IMG/VR virus record: IMGVR_UViG_2700989509_000013
DNA from: a virus
Lineage: Duplodnaviria > Heunggongvirae > Uroviricota > Caudoviricetes
Direction: 5' to 3' (one strand)
DNA length: 9,417 bases
Each line of letters opens with the position of its first letter. Position 1 is the stretch's first letter. The notes under the pieces were generated by a model that was not told the DNA's origin, did no database searches, and saw only the letters and a list, made by a program, of their open reading frames with translations. Made by a program: the position numbers and the translations under genes. Below, piece after piece: positions 256 through 9,060 of the stretch.

Positions 256-456
256 GAAAATAAAGGGATAACGATGATAGTTTGAGAAAAACAGAAATAA
301 CACTTTTGTGGCAAAGCATGGTGCCGGGTGCCTCCCGGTGAATTCAGTATCAGCACCTGAATCCGCGATTACCCCATATTCCTTCTTGCTGATTGCCCCA
401 CCGCACAGGGGGATTCACCATGCAGAAGTGTTTTTAATAAACAGCAAACAAAAAAA

Positions 457-624
457 TCAAGCATTATGCAGGCTGTTTCTTTTTATCACCGGCCACAGCA
501 ATACCATAATGCCGCAGACCAGCACCCCATCCGCCAGCACCGACATGATTCTGCTGGTGAAATCCACCATCACCACCAGAAACAGCAGGAGTGCAGCCAC
601 AGTCAGGCGCAGTTTTACCGTCAC
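457..624 (-). CDS. Hypothetical small membrane protein, 55 aa, two predicted TM helices (not in the supplied ORF track)
   Basis: GTG start at 622-624 overlaps the TerB-like TGA stop (GTGA); GGAG lies 8 nt upstream. Translation MTVKLRLTVAALLLFLVVMVDFTSRIMSVLADGVLVCGIMVLLWPVIKRNSLHNA has two hydrophobic stretches and a short basic tail. Internal ATGs would give 37- or 29-aa products. Confidence 0.35.
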   Translation of the reverse strand: MTVKLRLTVAALLLFLVVMVDFTSRIMSVLADGVLVCGIMVLLWPVIKRNSLHNA

Positions 625-1053
625 AGGTGATTCTCCAGACGAAGACCCAGAACACCGGCAATCTCTTCCAGCACCTTGCGCTCTTCCGGCTCAATTTCGC
701 CGTCTGCCTCCGCAATGGCCACCGCCACATCCAGCACATCTTCCGCTTCACGCGTATCGTGTTTCACATCCTCGATCTCACGTAACGCCGCACGACGACC
801 AGTTTTAAAGTTCGTATCCAGCTGACCGATAATGGTTGCGCTAATCGCATTAATTTCTGACGTAAACGCGTACAGCGCAGGCTGATTACGCAGTACCTGT
901 TCGATCTTCGCTTTCTAGGAAGCCTCACATTCACCATCTGCATAGGCCACCAGGTATGCGGCGTTAATCACCACCTGTGCCAAATCGCGTTTTTCAAACT
1001 TTTTAATTTCCGTTGCCGCTCTGCGGGCTTTTTTTACCAAAAATACCAAACAT
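621..1053 (-). pseudogene. TerB-like (tellurite-resistance TerB family) gene, disrupted by a frameshift and an in-frame amber stop
   Basis: ATG at 1051-1053 reads MFGIFGKKSPQSGNGN then stops. The main frame (…EIKKFEKRDLAQVVINAAYLVAYADGECEAS*KAKIEQVLRNQPALYAFTSEINAISATIIGQLDTNFKTGRRAALREIEDVKHDTREAEDVLDVAVAIAEADGEIEPEERKVLEEIAGVLGLRLENHL) is offset by one base at the T7 run 1029-1035 and contains TAG at 915-917 (plus-strand cta). Span 433 nt is not a multiple of 3. Confidence 0.6.
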
Positions 1054-1185: not shown

Positions 1186-1209
1186 AAAAAAGGCCCGCAA
1201 AAGCGAGCC
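1186..1209 (-). terminator. Rho-independent terminator downstream of the tRNA cluster (minus strand)
   Basis: Minus-strand hairpin: 7-bp stem (1192-1198 with 1203-1209, one G-U), UUUU loop, followed by a U6 tract (plus A-run 1186-1191). Confidence 0.5.
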
Positions 1210-1225
1210 GGGAAAATAAGTGTAG

Positions 1226-1299
1226 CGCGTTGTACTGGAGTCGAACCAGTGACCGATTGCTTAGAAGGCAATTGCTCTGTCCTGCTGAGCTAACAACGC
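1226..1299 (-). tRNA. tRNA-Arg (anticodon UCU)
   Basis: Clean cloverleaf on the minus strand: acceptor GCGTTGT/ACAACGC, D-arm GCTC/GAGC, anticodon stem ATTGC/GCAAT with loop CTTCTAA, T-arm ACTGG-TTCGACT-CCAGT. CCA not encoded. Confidence 0.9.
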
Positions 1300-1312
1300 A
1301 GAATACCGATAA

Positions 1313-1388
1313 TGGACCACCACCGGGGACTCGAACCTCGCACACTCAACTTAAAGGGTTGACGCTCTTTCCTGATGGCTAGTGGCGG
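1313..1388 (-). tRNA. tRNA-like gene, structurally degenerate (possible pseudo-tRNA; anticodon loop CCUUUAA would read UUU)
   Basis: Acceptor CCGCCAC/GTGGTGG pairs (one G-U) and CCA is encoded; anticodon stem TCAAC/GTTGA is perfect. D-stem has only 2 pairs (GCCA vs GAGC), T-stem has an A-C mismatch, position 33 is C not U, discriminator is U. Confidence 0.45.
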
Positions 1389-1389
1389 T

Positions 1390-1465
1390 TGGTGGCCCTT
1401 GCTGGATTTGAACCAGCGACCTGGCGATTATGAGTCGCTCGCTCTCACCACTGAGCTAAAGGGCC
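1390..1465 (-). tRNA. tRNA with anticodon CAU (Ile2/Met type, ileX/ileZ-like), CCA encoded
   Basis: GGCCCTTTAGCTCAGTGGTGAGAGCGAGCGACTCATAATCGCCAGGTCGCTGGTTCAAATCCAGCAAGGGCCACCA: 7-bp acceptor, GCTC/GAGC D-stem, loop CTCATAA, T-arm GCTGG-TTCAAAT-CCAGC. Closely resembles remembered E. coli ileX. Confidence 0.9.
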
Positions 1466-1474
1466 GGGCGCAGG

Positions 1475-1503
1475 ATAATAACGTTACGAAATCAATGTTG
1501 CAA
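1475..1503 (-). promoter_or_regulatory. Candidate sigma70 promoter for the tRNA cluster (possible late promoter)
   Basis: Minus strand: -35 TTGCAA (plus 1498-1503), 17-bp spacer, -10 TATTAT (plus 1475-1480), ending about 8 nt upstream of the tRNA 5' end at 1465. Confidence 0.4.
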
Positions 1504-1570
1504 GCATACAAAAATCACCCTTATCTCCTCCACCAGCGCATTCACCATGTCTATCCGAGATAAGTGGCAC

Positions 1571-1600
1571 AAAAAAACCCGCTTGTGGGCGGGTTTTGTT
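1571..1600. terminator. Bidirectional rho-independent terminator between Q-like gene and tRNA cluster
   Basis: Hairpin CCCGC-TTGTGG-GCGGG (1578-1593) flanked by A7 (1571-1577) and TTTTGTTT (1594-1601); gives a U-tract on either strand. Confidence 0.55.
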
Positions 1601-1660
1601 TGCTTTTGCCATCACGTACAAAATCGGCAAAATATCAGATTTGCATGAAATATATGCCTT

Positions 1661-2350
1661 TCAATCTACTTTTGCAACACTTTGCTTTGAAAATGCCGCC
1701 TTTTGTTTTGAACGTGTTCTCATTACAAACAATAAAGCCTCACTATCCAGTCGGTGAAAAATGTGTTTCATTGCAACCCAGTGACGAGTAAATGTTTTGG
1801 ACCAGTTTTTAGTTGTCACTCCCGCCAGTAATGCCAGCTCCTGATATTCATAACCTTCCCCACCAAAAAGTTCTGCTTTTACTGCCTGCGCCGCCAGCCA
1901 GATTAATTTTTTCAGGCGTTCCTGCGTTTTCCCAGCAATTTTTCTGGTACCGGATTGAGTATTAAATTCATTCCACGCCCACTGTGTTATCGCGATCTGA
2001 TATTCCCAACAAATACTCCCGCTGTAACACCACAACAACCAGGCTTTATGATGTTCTTCAAGAGACAGAACAGCCCGCCGCCACGATGATGTCGAAAACT
2101 CAACCGGACTGACCAGAGGAATTGACGTCACCTTCGCCAGCGATTGCTTTCCCGGGATTGGTGGATTATCCCGCGTTATCATTTTTCCAGTCACTTCATC
2201 GCGGTACCGGATTTTTTTTCGCCTGTAACGCCCTGTATCGAACATGGCATTCTCCTGCCAGGCTTCAAGCTGACCTTTTGTTGCCCCACTCAAATCAGCG
2301 GTGGCGATAATGAGCTGCTCACGCACAAACTGTAAATAGTGGTTATTCAT
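1661..2350 (-). CDS. Putative late antiterminator Q-like protein (229 aa from ATG 2350)
   Basis: Intact ORF directly downstream of rusA with ATGA stop/start overlap at 2347-2350, followed by terminator and tRNAs as in lambdoid Q regions. Assignment rests mainly on synteny; family not confirmed by motif. Track start at 2356 is GTG. Confidence 0.5.
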   Translation of the reverse strand: MNNHYLQFVREQLIIATADLSGATKGQLEAWQENAMFDTGRYRRKKIRYRDEVTGKMITRDNPPIPGKQSLAKVTSIPLVSPVEFSTSSWRRAVLSLEEHHKAWLLWCYSGSICWEYQIAITQWAWNEFNTQSGTRKIAGKTQERLKKLIWLAAQAVKAELFGGEGYEYQELALLAGVTTKNWSKTFTRHWVAMKHIFHRLDSEALLFVMRTRSKQKAAFSKQSVAKVD

Positions 2351-2712
2351 GCGCACTCCAGTTCTGTGATTTTTATCCCCAGCCGCCCACCAGGAACGAG
2401 CTGACCGCGCACAATATTGATTTCATCAAACTGCTCGTCGTCTATGAGAAGTCCGGCATGCGTCAGCACATCCAGTGGTGCTTTCAGGATATTGTCCAGG
2501 TCACGACGGCGCTTATCCGGTGGCTCTGCAATAATCTTTATCACCAGCCTTCCGGACAGGTTTAATTTCAGCCGCTGCTGGCGAACAATTAGCGCCACAT
2601 CACGGCGATAACGCTTTCCGGCTTCCGAGATGAAATACGTATTGCCATGACGTCGCCAGTAGGTATTCACCGTCGGCGGGTAAGGCAAAACAAATTCTAT
2701 CCGTTCAGTCAT
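2347..2712 (-). CDS. rusA: Crossover junction endodeoxyribonuclease RusA (Holliday junction resolvase)
   Basis: 121-aa product MTERIEFVLPYPPTVNTYWRRHG…DKRRRDLDNILKAPLDVLTHAGLLIDDEQ… matches remembered RusA (acidic catalytic motif, size). ATG at 2712 abuts the DUF968 stop at 2713-2715. Confidence 0.9.
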   Translation of the reverse strand: MTERIEFVLPYPPTVNTYWRRHGNTYFISEAGKRYRRDVALIVRQQRLKLNLSGRLVIKIIAEPPDKRRRDLDNILKAPLDVLTHAGLLIDDEQFDEINIVRGQLVPGGRLGIKITELECA

Positions 2713-3768
2713 TCATGCTTTCCACTTCAGGACACCCGAATTTCTCGCGTGCATTAAAAAACGAATCAGCAACAACAACTGACTACCGTGTTTTTCTTCA
2801 AAATCTTTTACCCCGGCGTGTAGTTCGTTATGGCATTTACGACACAGCGGAATAACAAACAAATCGTCAGCCTTTGTTCCCATCCCTCCCAGTCCATGAC
2901 CAATGATGTGATGCGGATCATCTGCCTGATTACCGCACGTCATGCATTTCTGCGTTTTTACCCAGCGCGTGTATACAGGCATCTCTTCCCGTTGTGGTTT
3001 CTGGCGCTGGAGATACTGAGCCGGTGACTCCGGATCAACGGCAATGCTGACCACCGTCTTTTCCTGTGGCGGGTTTTGCTGGTGGGCGTGAGGCAGCGGC
3101 GCAAGATTTTTTGTGCGCTGCTTCAGTATGCTGGTGGCGGTCTGCTCTCCCGGTACGATGTCGCTTTCACGGTACATTGAGCGGATTTTTTCCGCCGGTA
3201 ATCCCAGAGAACGACGCGATACTGCCTCAGGTAATGCGTCCACCACCTGATTGCAGACTGCCCACCAGGATAATTCAGCCAGCGATAATTCCCGTTCCTG
3301 TGTGCTATTCATTGCGTGGCGGATGACGTCAATCATCCATGCTGACAGATTTTGATGAGCAAGTTGCCCGAGTGATTCGGATGTCTGGTCACGCAGCTGG
3401 TTGTCGCAGTGCCAGCACAACACCATTGCGCCGGTACCATAACGGTGAATGACGGTTTCGCTGTGATGATAATCGCCGTGTGGCCACTGGCAGGATTTAA
3501 TATGGCGCAACAGCCAGTCAGACAATGCACCAGCACCACCAGCAGCACGAATCACACGCTCATTGCTGAAAAATGGCAGTAATGATTTATCTTCCGCCAG
3601 CGGCTGGCGAACGGCAGGAACGACCCCGGACGGCAGATTACGCATGCTTTTCGGTTCAGACTCCACCAGCACCCTGCCGCCATGAAATACCCGCATGGAT
3701 TCACGGCCTGGCTTAACGATAACCACCCCGAGTTCCGGTACCAGAACAGGTCGAAGTAATACCCGCAC
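2713..3768 (-). CDS. DUF968 (YdfU-like) protein with C-terminal Cys/His HNH-like motif
   Basis: 351-codon ORF; C-terminus CMTCGNQADDPHHIIGHGLGGMGTKADDLFVIPLCRKCHNELH is the characteristic motif. Codon at 3766-3768 is GTG; first ATG is at 3694-3696 (MRVFHGG…), so the start is ambiguous. Confidence 0.85.
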   Translation of the reverse strand: MRVLLRPVLVPELGVVIVKPGRESMRVFHGGRVLVESEPKSMRNLPSGVVPAVRQPLAEDKSLLPFFSNERVIRAAGGAGALSDWLLRHIKSCQWPHGDYHHSETVIHRYGTGAMVLCWHCDNQLRDQTSESLGQLAHQNLSAWMIDVIRHAMNSTQERELSLAELSWWAVCNQVVDALPEAVSRRSLGLPAEKIRSMYRESDIVPGEQTATSILKQRTKNLAPLPHAHQQNPPQEKTVVSIAVDPESPAQYLQRQKPQREEMPVYTRWVKTQKCMTCGNQADDPHHIIGHGLGGMGTKADDLFVIPLCRKCHNELHAGVKDFEEKHGSQLLLLIRFLMHARNSGVLKWKA

Positions 3769-3769
3769 G

Positions 3770-4048
3770 TTACCTCCAGATGCGCTGGCAATAACTGACT
3801 GGTGTACGTGGCTGATGATTTGATACAGGTAATGTCACCGAAACAAACCACGTCCTGCCGTCAGGGTTGAGTTGCTTTATTATTGTGTATCCGCGACGAC
3901 CGTATAACTCTTCAAGTTCCCCGAGTTCATGCGTCGTACAGTCCGGATAGTAGAAAGGGGGTTTTTCAGATACGGAAAATCGCCGTCCGTGCCTGCTTGC
4001 AGGGTCGACTGAATTATTGGGATTATGACGTTTGGTATAATGCACCAC
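3770..4048 (-). CDS. Hypothetical protein, 92 aa, GTG start (possibly Rem-like by position only)
   Basis: ORF bounded by stops at 4085-4087 and 3770-3772; no ATG in frame, tandem GTG at 4043-4048 preceded by GAGGG with 5-nt spacer. No recognisable motif. Confidence 0.4.
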   Translation of the reverse strand: MVHYTKRHNPNNSVDPASRHGRRFSVSEKPPFYYPDCTTHELGELEELYGRRGYTIIKQLNPDGRTWFVSVTLPVSNHQPRTPVSYCQRIWR

Positions 4049-4108
4049 TACAACCCTCGTAATGGTGCGACAGGAGCCAGTTGTTCAGGCTGGCTTCACC
4101 AGTATAAT

Positions 4109-4276
4109 TTAGTCTTCTTTAATACAGAAGTGGCTGACAGAATCCATGTGAGATTCTTTAGTGATCAGAATGGCGTCGGGTGGTAACGGCATTACAATAA
4201 ACTCTCCATTTGCAAGGGTTATCACCTCATAACTACCCGGTACAGAAAGCGCAGCAATTAATTCCTTATCATTCAT
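4109..4276 (-). CDS. Hypothetical small protein, 55 aa (not in ORF track)
   Basis: ATG 4274-4276 to TAA 4109-4111: MNDKELIAALSVPGSYEVITLANGEFIVMPLPPDAILITKESHMDSVSHFCIKED. Weak RBS. Candidate promoter upstream on minus strand (TTGAGC-18-TAGAAT) and a 12-bp palindrome about 30 nt before the start. Confidence 0.3.
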   Translation of the reverse strand: MNDKELIAALSVPGSYEVITLANGEFIVMPLPPDAILITKESHMDSVSHFCIKED

Positions 4277-4304
4277 AACAAAACCCTATGAACTTTTAAC
4301 ATTT

Positions 4305-4496: not shown

Positions 4497-4652
4497 TTAC
4501 TCCTCAGGTTCGTAAACTGTGAAGACAGCGACCTCCGTCTGGCCGGTTCGGATTCGTACCTCGCAGAGGTCTTTCCTCGTTACCAGTGCCGTCACTATGA
4601 CGGTTAAACAGATGACGATCAGGGCGATTAACATCGCCTTTTGCTGCTTCAT
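4497..4652 (-). CDS. hok: Hok-family type I toxin (HokD/RelF-like), 51 aa
   Basis: MKQQKAMLIALIVICLTVIVTALVTRKDLCEVRIRTGQTEVAVFTVYEPEE is a near-exact match to remembered HokD. ATG at 4650-4652 with AAGGAG 9 nt upstream; an in-frame upstream ATG at 4709 gives the 70-aa track ORF. Confidence 0.9.
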   Translation of the reverse strand: MKQQKAMLIALIVICLTVIVTALVTRKDLCEVRIRTGQTEVAVFTVYEPEE

Positions 4653-4830
4653 AGCCTGCTTCTCCTTGCCTTTCGGCACGTAAGAGGCTAACCTACATTT
4701 GTGAGACATAGATTGGGCCTCAGATTAATGTTAAGCGTCTTGCAGGACGCCGAATGTTAACTGGGGCTTTTCTCTATCTGCCTTTGGTGTTCATGCCTGA
4801 GACAGATAGCCTCAAGCACCCGCAGCCATT
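4653..4830 (-). promoter_or_regulatory. hok mRNA leader region (expected site of mok-like overlap, fold-back elements and antisense Sok-like RNA; not resolved)
   Basis: Position relative to hok plus inverted repeat CTATCTG/CAGATAG at about 4769-4808. Sok promoter could not be pinned down by eye. Confidence 0.3.
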
Positions 4831-7882: not shown

Positions 7883-8308
7883 TCAATGCACAGCCACAAT
7901 ATTTCCTGCAGGGCCACCTCGATTTATCTGGTTGAAACCAGCGATCGCCACTGCGACAAAATCATCAGCGTCTCTCACCAGTCGCTCCCGCGTCTCCACC
8001 AGCTCCCGAAAATAAGCTGAACTGTGGCTGCGCATTCTGGCCACCAGCAAAGGTGGCATTGCCTTTTCGATCGCTGGTAACAGCGCCTGAATTTTTTTAA
8101 CCGCATCAGGAGTATCTTTCTCCACCCAGCGGAAAATTTTCTGAGTATTGCGAGCCAGGGCTTCCGGATGGCTGTCGTCATACAGTTCAGGAAACGTCAT
8201 ACCCAACTCAAAATAAGCCTGGGTTATTCCAGCTGCTGGAACTTTTTCGCCATCAGGACGCGCCCAGGCATTCATCGCCATGCGGATGTGTTCATGCTTG
8301 ATTTTCAT
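7883..8308 (-). CDS. YdaT-like prophage regulatory protein
   Basis: 141-aa product begins MKIKHEHI…, matching the remembered N-terminus of Rac prophage YdaT. ATG at 8306-8308, GGAG 8 nt upstream; overlaps the cro-like gene end by 17 nt. Confidence 0.7.
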   Translation of the reverse strand: MKIKHEHIRMAMNAWARPDGEKVPAAGITQAYFELGMTFPELYDDSHPEALARNTQKIFRWVEKDTPDAVKKIQALLPAIEKAMPPLLVARMRSHSSAYFRELVETRERLVRDADDFVAVAIAGFNQINRGGPAGNIVAVH

Positions 8309-8567
8309 GAATCAACTCCGGTGTATTTGGTGTGTTAGCCTTATCTCCAGCAGGCAACCCGTCAGTTGGATTCGGGTATAAATCTGGTCGCAATTCATGA
8401 GGAGTAACCCCAGTTGCAATATAAATTTGACGAACCCGTTCTCCCGTCGGCACTCGACCATTGTATTCATTTGCCCATTTGTGTATTTGAGATGGCCAAG
8501 CCCCTATTGCACGCCCTAGCGGACGAATACCACCAGCAATCTTTATTGCTTTGTCCAATGCTGTCAT
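8292..8567 (-). CDS. Cro-like HTH regulator of the YdaS/DicC family
   Basis: 91-aa product with …LGRAIGAWPSQIHKWANEYNGRVPTGERVRQIYIATGVTPHELRPDLY…, the YdaS/DicC-type pattern (…HELRPD). ATG 8565-8567 with GGAGG 4-5 nt upstream; divergent from the repressor gene. Confidence 0.75.
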   Translation of the reverse strand: MTALDKAIKIAGGIRPLGRAIGAWPSQIHKWANEYNGRVPTGERVRQIYIATGVTPHELRPDLYPNPTDGLPAGDKANTPNTPELIHENQA

Positions 8568-8670: not shown

Positions 8671-9060
8671 ATGGACATGAGAAAAAAGCAATACGACACC
8701 CCGCTAGCAGAAAGGTTAGATACGATCTCTCAACAGCATCATTTAAGTGGTTCAGATTTAGCGCGTATCGCTGGTGTAGGTCGTTCATCAGTCAACGCAT
8801 GGAAAAAAAGAGGAACAATCAGTAAAGATTCCGCAGCCAAAATTGCAGAAGCCACAAACGTTTCCCTTTCTTGGCTACTGACAGGGAAAGAAGAGACAAA
8901 TAGAGAGGCGCTTGATGATGACGAGAAGGCCCTGCTTGATGTTTACAGAAACCTGCCACCTGTAGAACGTAGAAATATGCTGGCAGCTTTTCAAATGCGA
9001 CTCCAAAAACTGACCGAATTTTACTCAGAATACGTCGACCCAATAACACGACAAAAATAA
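8671..9060 (+). CDS. DicA/CI-like phage repressor (XRE-family HTH, no peptidase domain)
   Basis: 129-aa product with N-terminal HTH (…LSGSDLARIAGVGRSSVNAWKKRGTIS…) and C-terminal helical region …LLDVYRNLPPVERRNMLAAFQMRL… resembling remembered DicA. Divergent from the cro-like gene. Confidence 0.8.
   Translation: MDMRKKQYDTPLAERLDTISQQHHLSGSDLARIAGVGRSSVNAWKKRGTISKDSAAKIAEATNVSLSWLLTGKEETNREALDDDEKALLDVYRNLPPVERRNMLAAFQMRLQKLTEFYSEYVDPITRQK

Follow-up and report, generated by a model that had tools for sequence, protein, structure and literature searches.

The closest described counterpart of the gene examined here is tciB of bacteriophage P1, the second gene of the tciA-tciB-tciC cluster, which is located in the C1-controlled ban region. 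Its product, P1 TciB (P1_gp075), has 54 residues, and the gene directly follows, and overlaps, a gene of the TerB family; the third small gene of the cluster, tciC, encodes a protein of 35 residues with one transmembrane segment. The names of the P1 tci genes were assigned "by homology," and a transcriptome preprint grouped the tci genes with cell-division genes by name only. CRISPRi knock-down of tciA, tciB, and tciC in P1 causes no plating defect, and the genes are non-essential (PMC10695390). A similar pair is found in the N4-like phages Pollock (gp27-gp28) and FSL SP-058, which are strictly lytic podoviruses; in these phages a TerB gene is followed with 0-nt spacing by a DUF3927 gene of 53-54 codons, and the pair lies among early/replication functions. 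The Pollock pair has been remarked on as curious (PMC4319500).

TciA shares the TerB fold family with TerB of the ter operon, which is known from IncHI2 plasmids and Klebsiella (PDB 2jxu). This operon, terZABCDEF, has the multi-pass protein TerC as its membrane component, and protection against phages and colicins is a phenotype class historically tied to ter genes. However, the ter operon contains no DUF3927 gene, unlike the tciAB module, and the tellurite, phage, and colicin phenotypes are those of the ter operon. DjlA and YebE/DUF533 represent another arrangement, in which the TerB-like domain and the segment that holds it at the inner membrane are parts of one polypeptide chain. A TciA-TciB complex would achieve the same placement at the inner membrane, but with a separate two-segment peptide as the anchor and through a presumed interaction between the two proteins.

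The window analyzed here is a stretch of 9,417 nucleotides from a virus of the Caudoviricetes (IMG/VR record IMGVR_UViG_2700989509_000013). The original prediction drew attention to a 55-codon open reading frame next to a TerB-like gene and suggested that its product could be a TerB partner, a holin-like or antiholin-like peptide, or a membrane toxin. The best overall explanation of the locus, in which we have good confidence, is that the frame is tciB, that it would encode a coupled partner or anchor of TciA, and that it is a leftover in this window.

The tciB Gene and Its Family

The open reading frame occupies positions 457 to 624 on the minus strand (GTG start at 624-622, TGA stop at 459-457) and is identified as the coding sequence of tciB, of the DUF3927 family, from the list of open reading frames, Pfam, PHROG, RefSeq, and conservation. 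Its product of 55 residues is MTVKLRLTVAALLLFLVVMVDFTSRIMSVLADGVLVCGIMVLLWPVIKRNSLHNA. In the tetranucleotide GTGA (624-621), the start codon overlaps the TGA that ends the upstream TerB frame, and a Shine-Dalgarno-like GGAG at positions 633-636 on the same strand, situated within the closing codons of that frame (..CTG GAG..), is separated from the GTG by an 8-nt spacer. CTGGAG or CTGGAA stands at the same spacing before tciB in E. coli-type copies, and CTGGA or TTGGA in most diverged loci, while the structure of the RNA around the start is not unusual (z = 0.68). The start in a GTGA overlap, the GGAG 8 nt upstream, the two hydrophobic cores, and the basic tail that had been described for this frame are all present. 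That the frame lies on the minus strand had been left unstated.

TciB matches Pfam PF13064 (DUF3927) over residues 3-51 of 55 with 60.4 bits against a gathering score of 25 (E = 1.7e-16), and it matches PHROG 1470, "TciB-like," end to end (positions 1-54 of 54, E = 1.8e-29); the full label of the latter is [quoted passage not shown] No NCBIfam model matches TciB. When phage records were searched by tblastn, matches were found to the annotated tciB of P1, P7, SJ46, and 434, and also in N4-like phages. P1 TciB belongs to the same PHROG 1470/DUF3927 family and has the motif VDFTS..(M/L)S.L.DG.LV...P..K in common with the TciB of the window, to which it is 48% identical, and the proteins of the N4-like pairs are 52-55% identical to the latter. 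The DUF3927 family is small, with 61 clusters at 50% identity in a search of 1.84 billion representatives, and its members have lengths of about 50-67 residues, a range that includes TciB. Alignments and a set of 30 distinct sequences give the family motif K4..R6, L13-L16, D21-F22-T-S, L30, D32-G33, L35-V36, P45, and K48, every element of which is found in TciB.

RefSeq/PGAP lists the same frame as a "DUF3927 family protein" (WP_000216649.1, for instance) in the genomes that match best, among them O103 and O55:H7; its description as unlisted thus reflects only the size cutoff of the track of open reading frames. In other words, tciB was already known, as a catalogued and annotated gene and a homologue of P1 tciB. 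The search of the 55-residue sequence against protein families that had been proposed for this frame returned DUF3927/TciB-like and no holin family. It is almost certain that the frame is tciB, a member of DUF3927 (PF13064) and a real gene, and the view that it is a genuine gene for a small, putative membrane protein is borne out by the family matches together with the conservation of the frame.

Hydropathy analysis of TciB gives two hydrophobic cores, at residues ~5-20 and 33-47. Charged residues are located at the N-terminal end (K4 and R6), in an acidic, amphipathic center (D21, R25, and D32), and at the C-terminal end (K48 and R49). Hydropathy and charge distribution (the positive-inside rule) alone favor a two-segment hairpin with an N-in/C-in orientation; AlphaFold2, run with a 22-sequence alignment, predicts a single continuous helix spanning residues 3-54 (pLDDT 89.6, pTM 0.48) and no hairpin, a model that says little about the topology. 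A search of the PDB yielded no solved relative of TciB. Two hydrophobic segments with a charged C-terminal tail, a pattern superficially present in TciB, are generic for small membrane proteins.

Conservation of the Reading Frame

The comparison set comprised 101 loci with a DUF3927 open reading frame, spanning Escherichia, Enterobacter, Pantoea, Franconibacter, Rosenbergiella, Buttiauxella, and Pseudescherichia as well as P1 and N4-like phages. The tciB frame is intact in 97 of them, with lengths of 50-55 residues, and is truncated, without a start, or deprived of its stop in the other four (L019, L058, L059, and L094). Across 18 diverse sequences, the mean column entropy at codon positions 1, 2, and 3 is 0.78, 0.44, and 1.44, respectively; third positions thus vary most, which is the pattern expected of a coding region. 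Pairwise dN/dS values of tciB against diverged homologues range from ~0.1 to 0.67, with dS near saturation. Invariant columns of the protein are M1, K4, L14, D21, F22, L30, D32, L35, V36, P45, and K48. Near-identical E. coli copies of tciB differ by few changes (T8A, M40V, and V34G), mostly non-synonymous, and these substitutions are too few to demonstrate recent purifying selection. Conservation of the reading frame and of its GTGA junction in related prophages had been named as checks on the gene, and both came out in its favor, the frame being kept with a third-position bias across diverse sequences and the junction measuring -4 to 0 nt nearly throughout.

A 37-residue form starting at the internal ATG (M19) was considered and rejected, as position 19 is occupied by A or L outside the E. 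coli-type copies, in other genera, and residues 1-18 are conserved (K4, R6, L13, L14, L16, and V18).

These data also bear on the reading that the frame arose by chance and owes its conservation to the promoter or 5' part of STnc100, or to an antisense open reading frame. Small open reading frames are indeed abundant in the window, 36 of at least 30 codons overlapping its first 2.5 kb, and a size of 55 codons is by itself not evidence of a gene; it is conservation that lifts this frame above chance. In addition, an Rfam sRNA starts 5 nt after the tciB stop, a CATAAT hexamer lies within the last tciB codons, and synonymous changes are not in excess among the close E. coli copies. However, the family signal at the protein level is strong in both Pfam and PHROG, and frame, length, and motif persist in other genera, and in phages without STnc100, at identities of 52-68%. 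The variability of tciB is highest at third codon positions, and the frames that overlap tciB or run antisense to it have no family match. A chance origin is therefore so improbable that it can be given almost no weight.

The TerB-tciB Module

A TerB (TciA) gene is found directly upstream of tciB in 99 of the 101 loci, the two exceptions being phage 434 and one truncated copy from E. albertii. Junctions of the types GTGA (-4), TGATG or TAATG (-1), and TAAATG (0) are seen in all lineages, and only two loci fall outside the range of -4 to 0 nt, namely L014 (-8, with a TTG start and a diverged sequence) and L059 (-161, an artifact of the frameshifted tciA frame at that locus). Such a tight junction between tciA and tciB is the hallmark of coupled translation and of production in a 1:1 ratio. 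The same TerB-TciB pair is found in P1 (tciA-tciB), Pollock (gp27-gp28), and FSL SP-058, and the suggestion of a TerB partner in a two-gene module is thus well founded. Phage 434 has tciB and no TerB gene, and the 434 tciB, with its TTG start, its diverged N-terminus, and no Shine-Dalgarno sequence, looks like a recombination remnant.

Natural fusions of TerB with TciB were sought among the 61 clusters at 50% identity, and none was genuine; the long matches P0129, P0139, and P0168 proved to be frameshift or chimera artifacts. The partnership accordingly receives no Rosetta-stone support.

tciA Is a Pseudogene in the Window

The tciA gene of the window (positions 621-1053, minus strand; ATG at 1053-1051, TGA stop at 623-621) belongs to the TerB family and, unlike its counterpart in the P1 cluster, is a pseudogene. 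Two lesions are evident when it is read against the intact copies L061, L029, and L036. The A-run at positions 1029-1035 has seven A instead of the six of intact copies, which results in a frameshift, and the codon at 917-915 is the amber codon TAG where intact copies have GAG (Glu). RefSeq also flags tciA as a pseudogene, with the remark "internal stop." The domain is recognized by Pfam TerB (E = 7.6e-12) and PHROG 632 (E = 3.5e-64), and the repaired TciA sequence matches TerB of Klebsiella (PDB 2jxu) with E = 6.4e-7; weak matches to DjlA (E = 1.3e-6) and DUF533 (E = 4.9e-4) were also obtained. The inactivation of the TerB gene had been missed in the original prediction.

The tciA amber is present in 39 of the ~87 E. 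coli-type copies sampled, in most cases together with a second lesion, and tciB is intact in all 39. Another 45 copies of tciA, 41 of them E. coli-type, have no in-frame stop, and the identical TciB protein is also found beside intact tciA. The amber allele is a single recent event that has spread among near-identical prophages. Suppression of this amber by the adjacent tRNAs was considered and rejected, as their anticodons are CAT, TTT (in a degenerate element), and TCT, none of which reads UAG.

Because of the frameshift and the amber, ribosomes that start at the native tciA ATG cannot reach the GTGA. With tciA dead, expression of tciB in the window would have to rely on the GGAG and GTG of the gene itself, around which the RNA is unstructured. 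The tciB gene here is an intact leftover of a decayed module; coupled translation is no longer open to it, and its function has probably been lost or reduced.

An intact tciB beside a dead tciA, together with the orphan gene in 434, would suggest either a role that is independent of the partner or simply the slow decay of a 168-nt open reading frame. The former possibility corresponds to the proposal that TciB is a stand-alone membrane toxin or superinfection-exclusion peptide, acting independently of TciA, so that the orphan copy in the window would still be functional. Small inner-membrane exclusion proteins are known, such as Imm of T4 and gp15 of HK97, and cargo in the same slot is often of a defense type, including restriction-modification (RM), methyltransferase, and ParE genes. 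The survival of tciB in the 39 amber-bearing copies and its own start signals can be read in the same direction. However, across genera and phage types tciB is practically always accompanied by a TerB gene that is intact and tightly coupled, and the 434 gene, as noted above, has the appearance of a remnant. The amber allele is single and recent, and the survival of a 168-nt frame over such a period needs no selection. Moreover, TciB matches no toxin or defense model (Pfam, PADLOC), Hok/Gef included, and no antisense RNA family is detected by Rfam on the opposite strand at 457-624, whereas the same Pfam and Rfam tools did pick up a genuine hok/sok pair at another place in the window. The membrane toxin put forward for this frame thus finds no family behind it, and an autonomous toxin or exclusion peptide is unlikely.

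Genomic Setting

On the minus strand, the order of features is DUF968, RusA, Q, tRNAs, a hairpin, the tciA pseudogene, tciB, an STnc100-family sRNA, a second hairpin, and an esterase gene. The late antiterminator Q gene, at 1661-2356 (minus), is identified by Pfam Phage_antiter_Q (E = 1e-90) and by RefSeq annotation. It is followed by a tRNA cluster at 1225-1465 (minus) that consists, according to ARAGORN and Rfam, of tRNA(CAT) at 1390-1465, a degenerate tRNA-like element at 1313-1388, and tRNA-Arg(TCT) at 1225-1299. Between tRNA-Arg and tciA, a pattern scan gives a terminator-like GC hairpin with a T-run (1192-1209, minus), which is a consensus match only, and a consensus scan of the minus strand between this hairpin and tciA gave no sigma-70 promoter. 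The STnc100-family sRNA at 280-452 (minus; RF02076), which begins immediately beyond tciB, matches the full Rfam model with 100.8 bits against a gathering score of 47. After the sRNA comes a second terminator-like hairpin with T8 (237-255, minus; pattern scan), and then the start of a DUF1737/SASA carbohydrate esterase gene of the NanS-p type (1-142, minus; Pfam DUF1737, E = 1e-16; RefSeq), which runs off the left end of the window.

Judged by this gene order, the module lies in a Q-dependent late transcription unit of Q, tRNAs, cargo, STnc100, esterase, and lysis genes, whereas the P1 cluster belongs to the C1-controlled ban region. STnc100 sits 75 nt downstream of stx2AB in Stx2 phages (PMC12370729), and it is related to PasD, of which PasD2 adjoins a sialate esterase gene (bioRxiv 10.64898/2026.05.13.724894). 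As STnc100 follows both stx2AB and tciAB, the pair sits in the cargo slot that holds the Shiga toxin genes in those phages.

The lysis genes themselves are more distant than had been thought. In matching genomes, 2613 nt separate the tciB stop from the start of the holin gene, with the sRNA and a 1.85-kb esterase gene in between, and a position just before the lysis cassette is therefore untrue within the window, the lysis genes being ~2.6 kb beyond. In other prophages, the TerB-tciB pair is only ~560 nt upstream of the holin, with methyltransferase, RM, and ParE cargo alongside. This proximity is one of the points that make TciB look like a holin-, antiholin-, or pinholin-like peptide of lysis timing, which would form or modulate membrane lesions from the late operon. 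Like class II holins and pinholins (Phage_holin_2_1, S21), TciB is a small protein of ~55 residues with two hydrophobic segments, N-in/C-in by charge, and with a basic C-terminal tail, and its gene is in a late transcription unit downstream of Q. The resemblance is superficial, as there is no sequence relationship: searches for holin families at E<=1 in Pfam and E<=0.1 in PHROGs returned only DUF3927/TciB and a chance match to LMP1. Furthermore, a bona fide class II holin (Phage_holin_2_1), a lysozyme, and a spanin are separately annotated in every lambdoid context examined, and Pollock has its own, separately identified holin/antiholin pair (PMC4319500). In P1 and in the N4-like phages, where tciB is found in the ban region and among early/replication genes, respectively, the pair is away from the lysis genes. 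The linkage of tciB is to TerB and not to an endolysin, and knock-down of P1 tciB has no effect on plating (PMC10695390). A holin-like or antiholin-like function for this peptide, as the original prediction had envisaged, is thus very improbable.

Proposed Function

The reading that we prefer is that of TciB as a partner of TciA. The gene tciA, encoding a soluble TerB-fold protein, and tciB form a conserved two-gene phage cargo module that is translated as a coupled pair, the tciB start overlapping or adjoining the tciA stop. In the proposed model, TciB would be an inner-membrane protein whose two termini both face the cytoplasm and would serve there as the partner or anchor of TciA, so that TciA and TciB together would be a split version of the membrane-tethered TerB-like domains of DjlA and YebE/DUF533. 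In an infected or induced cell, such a complex would work at the inner membrane, where it might protect the envelope or membrane against stress or exclude an incoming phage or colicin.

The components of this model differ in strength. That TciB is an obligate functional partner of TciA is reasonably probable, although the lack of natural fusions, the survival of tciB beside dead tciA, and the orphan gene of 434 count against it. Its role as a membrane anchor, suggested by the near-absolute linkage of tciA and tciB, their coupled translation, and the weak relationship of TciA to DjlA and DUF533, is credible but tentative. The protective or exclusion role would be a guess from the phenotypes of the plasmid ter cluster, and we regard it as doubtful. 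A survey of the literature on TerB in lambdoid defense hotspots yielded nothing specific, and neither TciB nor TciA has a match at E<=0.1 among the PADLOC-DB models.

As to when the module acts, its presence in the lytic N4-like phages shows that it is not a lysogenic-conversion function as such. It occurs in virulent phages as well as in lytic transcription units of the early (P1, N4-like) or late (lambdoid) type, a distribution that points to a function in lytic growth and not in lysogenic conversion. In its widest form, the model would make TciA-TciB an inner-membrane system common to temperate (lambdoid, P1) and virulent (N4-like) enterobacterial phages, one that would protect the membrane or exclude superinfecting phages, pore-forming colicins, or membrane-depolarizing abortive-infection systems; TciB might even keep an autonomous activity, one possibility being a link to STnc100 expression. 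This extension is highly speculative, and we consider it improbable.

For the window itself, the consequences are small, as it contains an annotated family member with a dead partner gene. The broader interest lies in the pair as such. Megablast finds the region in 2675 of 5426 complete E. coli genomes, about half, with ~7,700 E. coli copies in all, and phages of three unrelated types carry the tciA-tciB pair. This is a widespread pair in the cargo slot of Shiga toxin, and genetics on an intact pair would fill a small gap in annotation.

Minor Features Near the Module

A 31-codon open reading frame at 464..369 (minus) overlaps the tciB stop much as tciC does in P1 and was considered as a tciC-like third gene. 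It was rejected because Pfam gave no match, no other lineage conserves it, and it falls within the stretch matched by STnc100; P1 tciC has no conserved counterpart here. A shared origin of the adjacent tRNA(CAT) and trnI of P1 was also considered. The two are 86% identical and both ileX-like, and the comparison is not informative. PGAP lists two tRNAs in the cluster upstream of the module.

Decay of the tciA-tciB Module

In the window, tciA, the TerB-family gene directly upstream of tciB (the 55-aa DUF3927-family ORF), is a pseudogene (621-1053, minus strand) carrying two independent lesions, namely an A6-to-A7 frameshift at 1029-1035 (-), shortly past the native ATG, and an amber codon (GAG to TAG) at 915-917 (-). 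The amber allele is shared by 39 of the approximately 87 E. coli prophage copies sampled, with tciB intact. Two viral-contig copies of this two-gene module, L058 (2859-3249) and L094 (2931-3186), contain 1-nt indels and are also cases of module decay. L058 reads GTGC in place of GTGA where the two genes meet, and therefore TerB reads through and tciB is left without a start; the tciB stop is gone as well. In L094, loss of the tciB stop extends the product to 63 aa.

Phage 434 (L004, 1612-2844) carries a tciB copy without TerB, in a region corresponding to the annotated 434B non-homology. This copy starts with TTG and is without a Shine-Dalgarno sequence; it is preceded by a gene for a 247-aa predicted membrane protein, for which a Pfam match was not found, and is followed on its 3' side by a 62-aa ORF.

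STnc100 Downstream of tciB

A full-length match to the STnc100 sRNA (Rfam RF02076, 100.8 bits) lies at 280-452 (-), beginning 5 nt past the tciB stop codon and covering a 31-aa ORF at 464..369 (-). A CATAAT hexamer within the last tciB codons could serve as the -10 element for this sRNA. STnc100 has been described just downstream of stx2AB (PMC12370729) and is related to the PasD sRNAs (bioRxiv 10.64898/2026.05.13.724894).

The Region Between Q and tciA-tciB

The slot between the late antiterminator gene Q and tciA-tciB is a general hotspot for cargo and defence genes: in other E. coli lambdoid prophages (L101-L106, about 1200-4300) it holds further genes, which comprise an N6/N4 methyltransferase, a type I restriction-modification M+S pair, or a ParE/HTH pair. 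In the window, ARAGORN places a third tRNA-like element, with anticodon TTT, at 1313-1388 (-), between tRNA(CAT) and tRNA-Arg(TCT). It has mismatches in the D-arm, scores 28.2 bits in Rfam against a gathering score of 29, and is absent from the PGAP annotation; it is probably a decaying tRNA. Two further features, each recognized by consensus match only, may represent the PR'/tR' elements of the late operon. One is a symmetric GC-rich hairpin between runs of A and T (1574-1597, either strand); the other, where Q ends, is the promoter-like sequence TTGCAA-17-TATATT (1649-1677, minus strand).

Other Loci in the Window

The prophage that carries tciB also encodes a true toxin-antitoxin system of type I. 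Its toxin ORF, at 4497-4709 (-), belongs to the hok/gef family (E=6.4e-22 in Pfam) and is paired with a sok antisense-type RNA at 4647-4821 (-) (RF01794, 116.9 bits). YdaS-like and YdaT-like ORFs (7883-8567, minus strand), together with an adjoining divergent 129-aa ORF (8671-9060, plus strand), probably constitute the immunity region. The YdaS and YdaT matches are to Pfam "toxin" families, which correspond to cro/cII-position genes in Rac-type prophages.
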